Source: Escherichia coli (GTDB taxonomy: Bacteria; Pseudomonadota; Gammaproteobacteria; Enterobacterales; Enterobacteriaceae). Taken from it: DNA of 64,000 bases. Within the stretch, counting starts at the first letter, position 1. Each line of letters opens with the position of its first letter. The notes beneath the pieces were generated by a model, which was given only the letters and a program-made list of their open reading frames with translations, searched no databases and was not told the DNA's origin. Made by a program: the position numbers and the translations under genes. The stretch lies in the NCBI RefSeq assembly GCF_048403405.1, contig NZ_CP183129.1, one strand, 5' to 3'. Shown here piece by piece: positions 3,003 through 42,391 of the stretch.

Positions 3003-3323
3003 ATGGCATCTTTGTCAAGCATGGGTGAAAAATTTCGCCTGATTCGTGAAGCAGAAGGTATGACCCGCCAGGAGTTTGCGGATTGTGTTGGGCTGCCTTA
3101 TGGGACGGTAACTAACTATGAGGTGAGGGGGAAGCAAGTAACAGAGGGTGCCTTACTTAAGGTTACGAAACACCCTAAATTTAAGAAATATGCTTATTGG
3201 TTATCAACAGATGAAACGATGCCGGAGGTTGGGCAAATTTCTCCGGCTCTCTCTCTTGATGGTTCCTGCAATTCGGAGGGAGATCGTGTTTCAACCGAAA
3301 CAATCCAAAAATTATCCCGCTGA
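3003..3323 (+). CDS. P2 C-like immunity repressor (HTH), about 106 aa
   Basis: Track ORF 2949..3323 trimmed to the ATG at 3003 (GGAGGA Shine-Dalgarno upstream). HTH region and C-terminal tail resemble P2 C (GLPYGT.., KYAYWL.., GQISPAL). Confidence 0.8.
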   Translation: MASLSSMGEKFRLIREAEGMTRQEFADCVGLPYGTVTNYEVRGKQVTEGALLKVTKHPKFKKYAYWLSTDETMPEVGQISPALSLDGSCNSEGDRVSTETIQKLSR

Positions 3324-3419
3324 GGCCAGAAAACTGGTTAGACCTGCTTTTTGTCTGGTCTGATTATTGCTGGAAAGAGGCTGGAGAAATTGTAGAGCGG
3401 TTCATTGGAGGGCTTCGCA

Positions 3420-4424
3420 ATGTCGATTAAGAAGCTCGAAGATGGTCGTTATTTGCTGGACATCAGGCCGAACGGACGCAAGGGAAAGCGCGTGCGTAAG
3501 GTATTTGACAAAAAATCGGTAGCGGTGGCCACTGAACGCTACATCATGGCGAACGCTGAAAAGCGGGAATATATACAGGGCTACCGTGATCGTCGAACGC
3601 TAAATGATTTGCTTGAGTTGTGGTGGATGTATCACGGCCAGCACAGGCGTAAGGCAGAAGAAGACCGAAAACAACTGCGCAACATAATCAATGAGCTTGG
3701 CGCTGATATGCAGGCTGTGGATCTTGATAAGCTAAAAATTATCGCGTGGCGTTCTCAAAAGATAGCTGATGGATTGAAACCGTCATCTGCTAACAGATAC
3801 ATGAATCGGTTATCCGGAATGTTTACCGTACTGAAGAAAATAGGCCTCTGGGATGCAGAACATCCGGTAAGGGGAATTTCTATTCTTTATGTATCTCCAC
3901 GAGAAATGGCTTTCCTGTCCCAGAAGGAAGTGGCGTTATTGCTCGATACACTGGAGGGCGATTACTGGCGTGTTGCGCTTTTGTGTTTAAGCACGGGGGC
4001 GCGCTGGAGTGAAGCCTGTAAGCTTCGTGGTGAACAGATAGTTCATAACCGTGTAACGTTTCTTGAAACCAAAAATGGCCGAAAGAGAACAGTGCCAATT
4101 TCGCAGGCAGTTTGTGAGGCGATCAAAACCAGAGAAACAGGCGGCTTGTTTGAGGTGAAGTACCGGGAATTCTGCTTGGCGCTGAAAAGAGTTAAGCCCG
4201 ATTTGCCAAAAGGCCAGGCTGCACATGTGCTGCGGCATACGTTCGCCAGCCATTTTGTGATGAACGGAGGAAACATTATTGCGCTTCAGAAGATTCTTGG
4301 CCACGCAACCATTCAGCAAACAATGGCATATGCACATTTTGCACCGGATTACCTGCAGGATGCGGTGGCCCTTAATCCGCTGAAAGGTGGCGTGAGTGTC
4401 CACGCAGTGTCCACGGGGGATTAA
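3420..4424 (+). CDS. int: P2-family tyrosine integrase (334 aa)
   Basis: Strong similarity to P2 Int across its length (MSIKKLEDGRY.., LCLSTGARWSEA, IVHNRVTF, HVLRHTFASHF, YAHFAPDYLQDA). Start taken at the ATG at 3420, 7 nt after GGAGGG. Confidence 0.9.
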   Translation: MSIKKLEDGRYLLDIRPNGRKGKRVRKVFDKKSVAVATERYIMANAEKREYIQGYRDRRTLNDLLELWWMYHGQHRRKAEEDRKQLRNIINELGADMQAVDLDKLKIIAWRSQKIADGLKPSSANRYMNRLSGMFTVLKKIGLWDAEHPVRGISILYVSPREMAFLSQKEVALLLDTLEGDYWRVALLCLSTGARWSEACKLRGEQIVHNRVTFLETKNGRKRTVPISQAVCEAIKTRETGGLFEVKYREFCLALKRVKPDLPKGQAAHVLRHTFASHFVMNGGNIIALQKILGHATIQQTMAYAHFAPDYLQDAVALNPLKGGVSVHAVSTGD

Positions 4425-4451
4425 TTTTATATAGCCTGAAACGGCTTAAAG

Positions 4452-4486
4452 GGCGATACTGAATAACAATTTTTCAGTATTGCCCG
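4452..4486. repeat. imperfect 13-bp inverted repeat (GGGCGATACTGAA ... TTCAGTATTGCCC) in the int-pdxB junction
   Basis: Read from the sequence; one mismatch. Could be an int terminator or an att-associated site. Confidence 0.4.
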
Positions 4487-4582
4487 TCTAAATGGTTATG
4501 TTGTTATCTGTATGATTATGAATGTTTTTTCAGATTAAACAGCAGTTTGCAAATGGGCGTTTGTTAATAAAGGAGCCTTAGA

Positions 4583-5740
4583 TTGTCAGAGACTGAAAAA
4601 TGGTTAAAAATCCTTGTTGATGAAAATATGCCTTATGCCCGCGACTTATTTAGCCGTTTGGGTGAGGTGACCGCGGTTCCCGGGCGTCCAATTCCCGTGG
4701 CTCAACTGGCAGACGCGGATGCGATGATGGTGCGTTCGGTCACGAAAGTGAATGAATCTTTGCTGGCAGGAAAACCCATTAAATTTGTTGGCACTGCCAC
4801 CGCGGGGACCGACCATGTCGATGAAGCGTGGTTAAAGCAGGCGGGAATTGGTTTTTCCGCGGCACCTGGCTGTAATGCGATTGCGGTGGTGGAATATGTT
4901 TTCTCCTCACTGCTGATGCTTGCCGAACGCGATGGATTTTCACTGCACGAGCGTACCGTGGGGATCGTGGGCGTTGGTAACGTTGGTCGCCGTTTACAGG
5001 CGCGACTGGAAGCGTTAGGGATTACAACCTTGCTTTGCGATCCGCCCCGCGCCGACCGTGGGGATGAGGGGGATTTCCGCTCGCTGGATGAATTAGTTCA
5101 GCATGCGGATATTCTGACTTTCCATACGCCACTCTTTAAAGATGGTCCGTACAAAACGCTGCATCTGGCGGATGAAAAACTGATCCGCAGCCTGAAGCCG
5201 GGAGCGATTCTGATTAACGCCTGCCGTGGCGCAGTTGTCGATAATACCGCCCTGCTGACCTGCCTGAACGAAGGCCAGAAGTTAAGCGTAGTGCTGGATG
5301 TCTGGGAAGGCGAACCGGAACTTAACGTGGAATTGCTGAAAAAAGTGGATATCGGCACGCCGCATATCGCAGGCTATACCCTGGAAGGTAAAGCACGCGG
5401 TACTACGCAAGTGTTTGAAGCTTATAGCAAGTTTATTGGGCATGAACAGCACGTTGCGCTGGATACATTACTGCCCGCGCCAGAGTTTGGTCGCATTACG
5501 CTGCATGGCCCGCTCGATCAGCCAACGCTGAAAAGGCTGGTGCATTTGGTGTATGATGTGCGCCGCGATGACGCACCGCTGCGTAAAGTCGCCGGGATAC
5601 CGGGTGAGTTCGATAAACTGCGCAAAAACTATCTTGAGCGCCGTGAATGGTCATCTCTGTATGTGATTTGTGATGACGCCAGCGCGGCATCATTGCTGTG
5701 TAAACTGGGTTTTAACGCCGTTCATCATCCGGCACGTTAA
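4583..5740 (+). CDS. pdxB: erythronate-4-phosphate dehydrogenase
   Basis: Translation matches E. coli PdxB. The TTG at 4583 is 7 nt after an AGGAG Shine-Dalgarno; the exact start is uncertain. Confidence 0.93.
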
Positions 5741-11424: not shown

Positions 11425-11625
11425 GGTCTTGCCTGATGCGACGCTGGCGCGTCTTATCAGTCCTACGCAGGAGTAGAACCGTAGGTCGAATAAGGCGTTC
11501 ACGCCGCATCCGACAGCCGTTGCCTGATGCGACGCTGGCGCGTCTTATCAGGCCTGCGCAGGGGTAGAACCGTAGGTCGAATAAGGCGTTCACGCCGCAT
11601 CCGACACGCATTGCCCGATGCCGCA
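11425..11625. repeat. tandemly duplicated REP/BIME unit (~90 bp, two copies)
   Basis: GCCTGATGCGACGCTGGCGCGTCTTATCAG...CGTAGGTCGAATAAGGCGTTCACGCCGCATCCGACA occurs twice with a few substitutions. Confidence 0.85.
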
Positions 11626-42339: not shown

Positions 42340-42391
42340 CCGAATTTCGATTAACGCTCAGTCTCTGACTGAGAAAACTGGAAGCATGCTA

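Follow-up and report, generated by a model that had tools for sequence, protein, structure and literature searches.

The prophage end and the attachment core

The window, that is, the whole stretch of Escherichia coli DNA analysed here (64,000 nt), carries pdxB, the gene for 4-phosphoerythronate dehydrogenase, at 4583-5740 (+). This open reading frame matches the PdxB profile, and its product is deposited as WP_418512228.1. A TAA at 4568-4570 precedes the frame, which is open from 4571 and, from TTG 4583, comprises 385 codons, ending with the usual pdxB stop at 5740. From 4583 it reads TTG TCA GAG ACT GAA AAA TGG TTA AAA ATC CTT GTT GAT GAA AAT ATG CCT TAT. Upstream of residue 17, the only in-frame ATG, GTG or TTG codons are TTG 4583 and ATG 4628.

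The genes to the left of pdxB are those of a phage. A Cox-like excisionase/repressor gene (2602-2889, -), an open reading frame whose counterpart in other records is annotated as a Cox family DNA-binding protein, diverges from a gene for a C-type helix-turn-helix immunity repressor (3003-3323, +), an open reading frame upstream of int on the same strand. The counterpart of the C gene is annotated as a helix-turn-helix protein in the carrier SWHEFF_68 (L001 1579-1899, offset 1424) and as "C protein" in phage PhiSM. The P2-type tyrosine integrase gene, int (3420-4424, +; 334 aa from ATG 3420), reads toward the junction with pdxB and is annotated as an integrase in genomes and phages. In SWHEFF_68, flk and pdxB are separated by a P2-like prophage of about 37 kb, which contains head, tail, lysis and replication genes of the P2 type; the window contains just the terminal 4.6 kb of the prophage.

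We compared the int-to-core stretch (3405-4626) with free phages and found 92-99% identity to five records, namely Xuanwuvirus P88_4B11 (two records), PhiR44_2, Chuche and Citrobacter phage Shae_phiSM. The order int, arm, core and its sequence are shared with the free phages P88_4B11, Chuche, PhiR44_2 and PhiSM, and the integrase protein is 98-100% identical in many IMG/VR prophages. With near certainty, a P2-like prophage of the P88/PhiSM type (genus Xuanwuvirus) has its right junction, attR, at 4583-4626.

The attachment core is a 20-bp block, AAAATCCTTGTTGATGAAAA (4607-4626, +), which corresponds to pdxB codons 2-8 (K I L V D E N, minus the last base). In an alignment of the four kinds of site, the core AAAATCCTTGTTGATGAAAA was identical in attR, attL, attB and the attP of phage Chuche, and the attP of P88_4B11 has one mismatch within the 20 bp. 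Between the int stop and the core lies the phage-derived attR arm (4425-4606, +), which has no counterpart in prophage-free E. coli and is continuous with the attP of free phages. When the segment 4425-4900 was used as the query, the match in the prophage-free genomes listed started at query base 183, that is, at window position 4607.

Two direct TGTCCAC repeats (complement GTGGACA), a P2-type Int arm-binding motif, lie at 4397-4414 (+) inside the 3' end of int. The consensus of P2-type arm sites is tgTGGaCa (PMC3448106). A similar pair, TGTCCAC and TGACCAC, is found in the other arm (attL, attP), and by their sequence the arm-type motifs appear to flank the core on both sides.

The opposite prophage end was read in SWHEFF_68, where attL consists of the native pdxB leader, GTG and AAAATCCTTGTTGATGAAAA, followed by phage DNA. 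At this end (L003 5867-5911) the native pdxB promoter, leader and GTG head a frame of 14 codons (MKILVDEKNDDLIY, then a stop), which extends into the phage cargo region, antisense to a TagO-like gene. A strong hairpin (ACACAAAGCCCG...CGGGCTTTGTGT) lies about 60 nt downstream of this frame. The cargo adjoining attL differs by phage, with TagO-like and zinc-ribbon genes in one and a DNA methyltransferase and Com in another. Among the IMG/VR attL junctions (L006-L047), the phage sequence directly right of the core takes at least six forms, among them AAATGATGAC, AGATGTTGAT, AAACAAAGAT, AGATGATTGG and ATGAAAATTA; in contrast to this variable side, the int-side arm is nearly invariant.

Two RNA families scored above the Rfam gathering score in the prophage early region, a C4 antisense RNA (39-126, -; 78.5 bits) and, beside it, an isrK Hfq-binding RNA (162-236, -; 63.1 bits). 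C4 antisense RNA and isrK belong to antirepressor control modules of the P1/P7 type. The pair may therefore mark an acquired immunity or anti-repressor cassette in this P2-like genome.

The phage-borne leader and its carriers

The native pdxB start in a K-12-like genome is GTG rather than ATG, and the sequence there is acaaacGTGaaaatccttgttgatgaaaatatg (annotated CDS from L002 2998). Everything left of 4607 in the window is unrelated to the K-12 leader. The original prediction, made from the letters of the window, held that a TTA leucine codon stands where K-12 PdxB has its initial Met, and this is what we find: TTA 4604-4606 lies immediately 5' of native codon 2 (AAA) and occupies the place of the native GTG. 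The start peptide that it gave for K-12 PdxB was right, and the codon was not, being GTG instead of ATG (it still encodes Met). The same prediction would have been undone by an identical K-12 nucleotide sequence; in K-12-type genomes the whole sequence left of 4607 is different. It had also offered a choice between a non-canonical start and a 5' end altered by a prophage junction. Both hold, as a single event, with attR lying inside pdxB codons 2-8.

A phage-encoded Shine-Dalgarno sequence, AAGGAG, is located at 4570-4575 (+) with a spacer of 7 nt to the TTG, as the prediction had described for AGGAG, and was invariant in all 10 of the 10 aligned attR/attP sequences. It is followed by the phage-encoded TTG start and seven further codons (4583-4606, +; M-S-E-T-E-K-W-L), which are present in the free phages P88_4B11, Chuche and PhiSM. 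These eight codons (MSETEKWL) replace the native Met1, so the chimeric protein has 385 aa against 378 aa for native PdxB, a net gain of the 7 N-terminal residues that had been predicted. The free phages already contain AAGGAGCCTTAGATTGTCAGAGACTGAAAAA(T/G)GGTTA directly before the core. Since they carry the Shine-Dalgarno sequence, the TTG and the seven codons, these elements belong to attP and were not made by the insertion.

Base 4601 is the sole variable position in 4583-4606 among the aligned attR/attP sequences, being T (Trp) or G (Gly). The T creates an out-of-frame ATG at 4600-4602, which opens a frame of six codons (ATG GTT AAA AAT CCT TGT TGA) between TTG 4583 and the core. Most carriers, and the free phages, have G at this base (GGG, Gly) and lack this ATG.

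We then counted the carriers among complete E. coli genomes. With the query 4425-4900, pdxB was found in 5425 of 5426 genomes, and the entire stretch was matched in only 302 of the 5425. The phage arm 4425-4606 was present in 303 of the 5426 genomes (5.6%), always on the chromosome, with an identity of 95.6-100% across the arm; the carriers include O111, O145 and O55:H7 strains. The arm occurs at 306 places in the 303 genomes, and three genomes, such as NZ_CP120549.1 (H54), have two copies, which could result from tandem lysogeny or a secondary site.

IMG/VR was also searched. The core search returned mostly attL junctions and added three leader copies only. Integrases of 80-82% identity are followed by unrelated sequence downstream of int. 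No independent phage lineage at the same pdxB site was found among the IMG/VR integrase relatives, a search limited by the fact that most of the prophage contigs end at the int stop codon.

The annotation of the gene is divided. The query 4425-4606 stops before the core, and hence a pdxB feature under the match indicates annotation from the TTG. Among 40 carriers sampled at even spacing, RefSeq annotates the TTG start in 17 and not in the other 23. Of six carriers that were inspected, the CDS begins at the TTG (1158 nt) in CRE1540 and at ATG 4628 (1113 nt) in the other five; the pdxB CDS of SWHEFF_68 is likewise 1113 nt from ATG 4628. The gene is annotated as intact in all carrier genomes inspected, and the exact 385-aa and the exact 370-aa proteins both exist in NCBI under the same name. 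RefSeq thus gives one gene two starts, TTG (385 aa) or the internal ATG (370 aa), and a "truncated PdxB" in protein clusters or pan-genome counts of these strains is probably an annotation artefact.

Start codon and the PdxB protein

Pairing with the 3' end of 16S rRNA was calculated for each candidate start. The value for TTG 4583 was the most favourable (-7.9 kcal/mol), compared with -3.8 kcal/mol for the native GTG, -2.2 kcal/mol for ATC 4610 and +0.4 kcal/mol for ATG 4628. TTG is a weak initiator codon. When the 182-nt arm was shuffled (n = 20000), 45% of the shuffles yielded some in-frame start without a stop before the core, and only 1.2% yielded an in-frame start with pairing of -7.5 kcal/mol or lower. 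The leader has 1 variable column in 37 against 16 in 146 upstream, a difference that is not significant (Fisher p = 0.20); the carriers are 95-100% identical, and because they are so closely related, the near-invariance of the leader is not separable from recent common descent. ATC 4610 was rejected as a start, being a rare initiator with weak pairing.

Judged from its sequence context, TTG 4583 is probably the functional start of PdxB. The arrangement is explained as follows. The adjacent P2-type integrase recombined site-specifically within the 20-bp core that coincides with pdxB codons 2-8. This left the promoter, leader and GTG of the native gene behind at the far prophage end (attL), and the phage arm that now abuts pdxB carries AAGGAG, the 7-nt spacer, the TTG and, in frame with the core, seven further codons. 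The AAA (Lys2) codon is regenerated by the phage, and a PdxB translated from TTG 4583 would keep the conserved KILVDEN strand. We put the probability of this whole account, namely an attR insertion in pdxB, a phage-supplied TTG start and a 385-aa PdxB, at about 0.8.

The original prediction regarded TTG 4583 as the only plausible start. It is the best candidate, and the prediction overlooked ATG 4628 (4628-4630, +), the Met9 codon of native PdxB, which many RefSeq annotations use as an alternative start. Translation from this internal ATG would give a 370-aa PdxB lacking the first eight residues, and the open frame from the TTG would in that case be a coincidence. No initiator codon is stronger than ATG, and the NCBI pipeline chose ATG 4628 in SWHEFF_68, in five of the six further carriers inspected and in 23 of the 40 sampled. 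However, Shine-Dalgarno pairing is absent at this codon, and the same ATG in an identical context is not the annotated start in prophage-free cells.

The protein comparisons bear on the same choice. Against the NCBIfam equivalog NF011966 (cut-off 687 bits), the 385-aa form scored 853.7 bits, with residues 8-385 on profile positions 1-378. The 370-aa form, for which database entries exist, still scored 835.6 bits, above the cut-off, and covered profile positions 9-378. The chimeric protein matches the three-domain layout of PdxB, with a catalytic domain (PF00389), an NAD-binding domain (PF02826) and a C-terminal dimerisation domain (PF11890, DUF3410), and it is 88% identical to the solved Salmonella enzyme 3OET. 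The Pfam 2-Hacid_dh match begins at profile position 3 in the 385-aa form and at position 34 in the 370-aa form, so that a start at ATG 4628 shortens the catalytic-domain match by about 30 profile positions.

A start at ATG 4628 would also remove KILVDEN, which is conserved from E. coli to Pseudomonas. The motif M(K/R)IL-DEN-P stands at the extreme N-terminus of the solved PdxB chains of Salmonella, Vibrio and Pseudomonas, and I10, L11, D13, E14, N15 and P17 were invariant in an alignment of six sequences. In an AlphaFold model built from this six-sequence alignment (pLDDT 75.6), residues 8-13 (LKILVD) form the first strand and residues 1-7 are coil, and by this model a start at ATG 4628 would mean the loss of the first beta-strand. 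A single-sequence AlphaFold run was discarded for its low pLDDT (41) and meaningless all-helix N-terminus. The chains of 3OET and 5DT9 have 3 and 6 extra N-terminal residues, respectively, so a short N-terminal extension is compatible with folding. Together with the absent pairing, these features make initiation at ATG 4628 unlikely.

Another explanation is that pdxB is silent in the lysogen, cut off from its promoter and start, so that pyridoxal phosphate (PLP) would come from a bypass or from uptake and the TTG would be of no consequence. The native promoter and GTG are indeed about 37 kb away at attL, and no convincing promoter was found in the arm (see below). In E. coli, pdxB deletions are known to be suppressed by multicopy genes acting through promiscuous pathways, which counts for this explanation. 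However, the frame is intact in the window, and an insertion found in 5.6% of complete E. coli genomes shows no sign of pdxB decay. The growth of K-12 lysogens of PhiSM also stands against silence: in M9 glucose MG1655(PhiSM) matches the growth of the wild type, and pdxB mutants, which are auxotrophs, do not (PMC6456863). A silent gene is thus slightly less probable still than initiation at ATG 4628. For the 385-aa form translated from TTG 4583, this growth is by analogy an indirect indication of 4-phosphoerythronate dehydrogenase activity.

That a point mutation or a sequencing error produced the TTA in an ordinary pdxB start codon has nothing in its favour beyond the view of this single codon and is highly improbable, as no part of the sequence left of 4607 is related to the K-12 leader and the same sequence occurs in 303 genomes and in free phages.

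Transcription of pdxB in lysogens

Scans of the region from int to the Shine-Dalgarno sequence (4425-4582) gave no convincing sigma-70 promoter. The sole hit of the promoter tool, TTGTCA at 4583 with AAAAAT ending at 4611, was at chance level and lies downstream of the TTG start. A looser scan gave weak candidates only, such as TTGCCC and TGTTAT separated by 16 nt at 4480-4507. The promoter proposed in the PhiSM paper (PMC6456863), TTGCAA/TAAAGG (-10 at 4568-4573), was also rejected: its spacer is 15 nt, its -10 box has 3 of 6 matches, and it overlaps the Shine-Dalgarno sequence. Judging by its position, a transcript from TAAAGG would begin about 2-3 nt before the TTG and would lack AAGGAG, so that this promoter and the ribosome-binding site would be mutually exclusive.

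No terminator-like site was found between int and pdxB. Just past the int stop there is a 13-bp hairpin (GGGCGATACTGAA / TTCAGTATTGCCC; 4451-4485, +), which has no T-run and was not called as a terminator. The int-pdxB spacer (4425-4600) folds far better than shuffled sequence (z = -4.29). Possible roles of this hairpin are RNA stabilisation, partial termination or protein binding in attP, and it could reduce read-through into pdxB.

In P2, the lysogenic C-int transcript starts at Pc. We infer, with less support than for the start codon, that pdxB is probably transcribed by read-through of the phage C-int lysogenic operon. The stronger claim, that the pdxB of lysogens has no promoter of its own and is the third gene of a Pc-C-int-pdxB lysogenic operon, is tentative and rather doubtful. 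If it were true, about 5% of E. coli strains would have their vitamin B6 synthesis tied to the regulatory state of a prophage. The expression of pdxB would then drop when Cox shuts off Pc at induction, and the native growth-rate-dependent control of pdxB would be lost.

Comparison with known integration systems

Magaziner et al. (2019, J Bacteriol 201:e00638-18; PMC6456863) have mapped PhiSM, a P2-like phage of Citrobacter rodentium, to the 5' end of pdxB in K-12, and noted for it an in-frame TTG with AAGGAG at -7. They reported that the K-12 lysogens remain prototrophic for vitamin B6, and that in C. rodentium PhiSM integrates at this core within a traF-like gene (PMC6456863). The replacement of the pdxB start by a phage-borne one has therefore been known for this phage family since 2019.

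PhiSM belongs to the same genus, Xuanwuvirus, and has the same integrase as the prophage of the window, with 96.9% identity from int to the core. It uses the same site at the pdxB 5' end, its AAGGAG/TTG leader is identical to that of the window save base 4601, and the proposed consequence is the same, a phage-supplied start and a prototrophic lysogen. However, PhiSM in K-12 is a laboratory lysogen, whereas the window comes from a natural E. coli lysogen. Our reading also departs from the PhiSM paper (PMC6456863) in three details: the site is given there as 17 bp, compared with the 20-bp identity block here; the native start is given as ATG, compared with GTG here; and the AAA codon is described as lost, whereas here it is regenerated by the phage. 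The locus clearly illustrates how a phage can enter a biosynthetic gene at its 5' end and, by bringing a spare translation start, not destroy it.

The prophage resembles phage P2 in the order Cox, divergent C, int and attP, in its short core and in its arm repeats of the TGTCCAC type. It differs from P2, which integrates between genes and at other sites. Phages e14 and 21 integrate in the 3' end of icd, and other phages in the 3' ends of tRNA genes or ssrA. As in these gene-end integrators, the core here lies in functional sequence and the arm rebuilds a working gene. Unlike e14 and phage 21, which replace a 3' end, this prophage replaces a 5' end, and the product is not the native one. The phage therefore has to provide translation initiation as well as transcription, and not just a few terminal codons. 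Integration at ssrA and tRNA genes is mentioned in PMC3448106 and PMC6456863.

A search for tRNA genes in the 64,000-nt window gave none. Rfam did place two further RNA elements in it, naRNA4, a REP-derived nucleoid-associated RNA (11484-11554, +; 75.1 bits), and the nuoG RNA motif (42342-42384, +; 50.3 bits), both of which are ordinary features of the E. coli chromosome.
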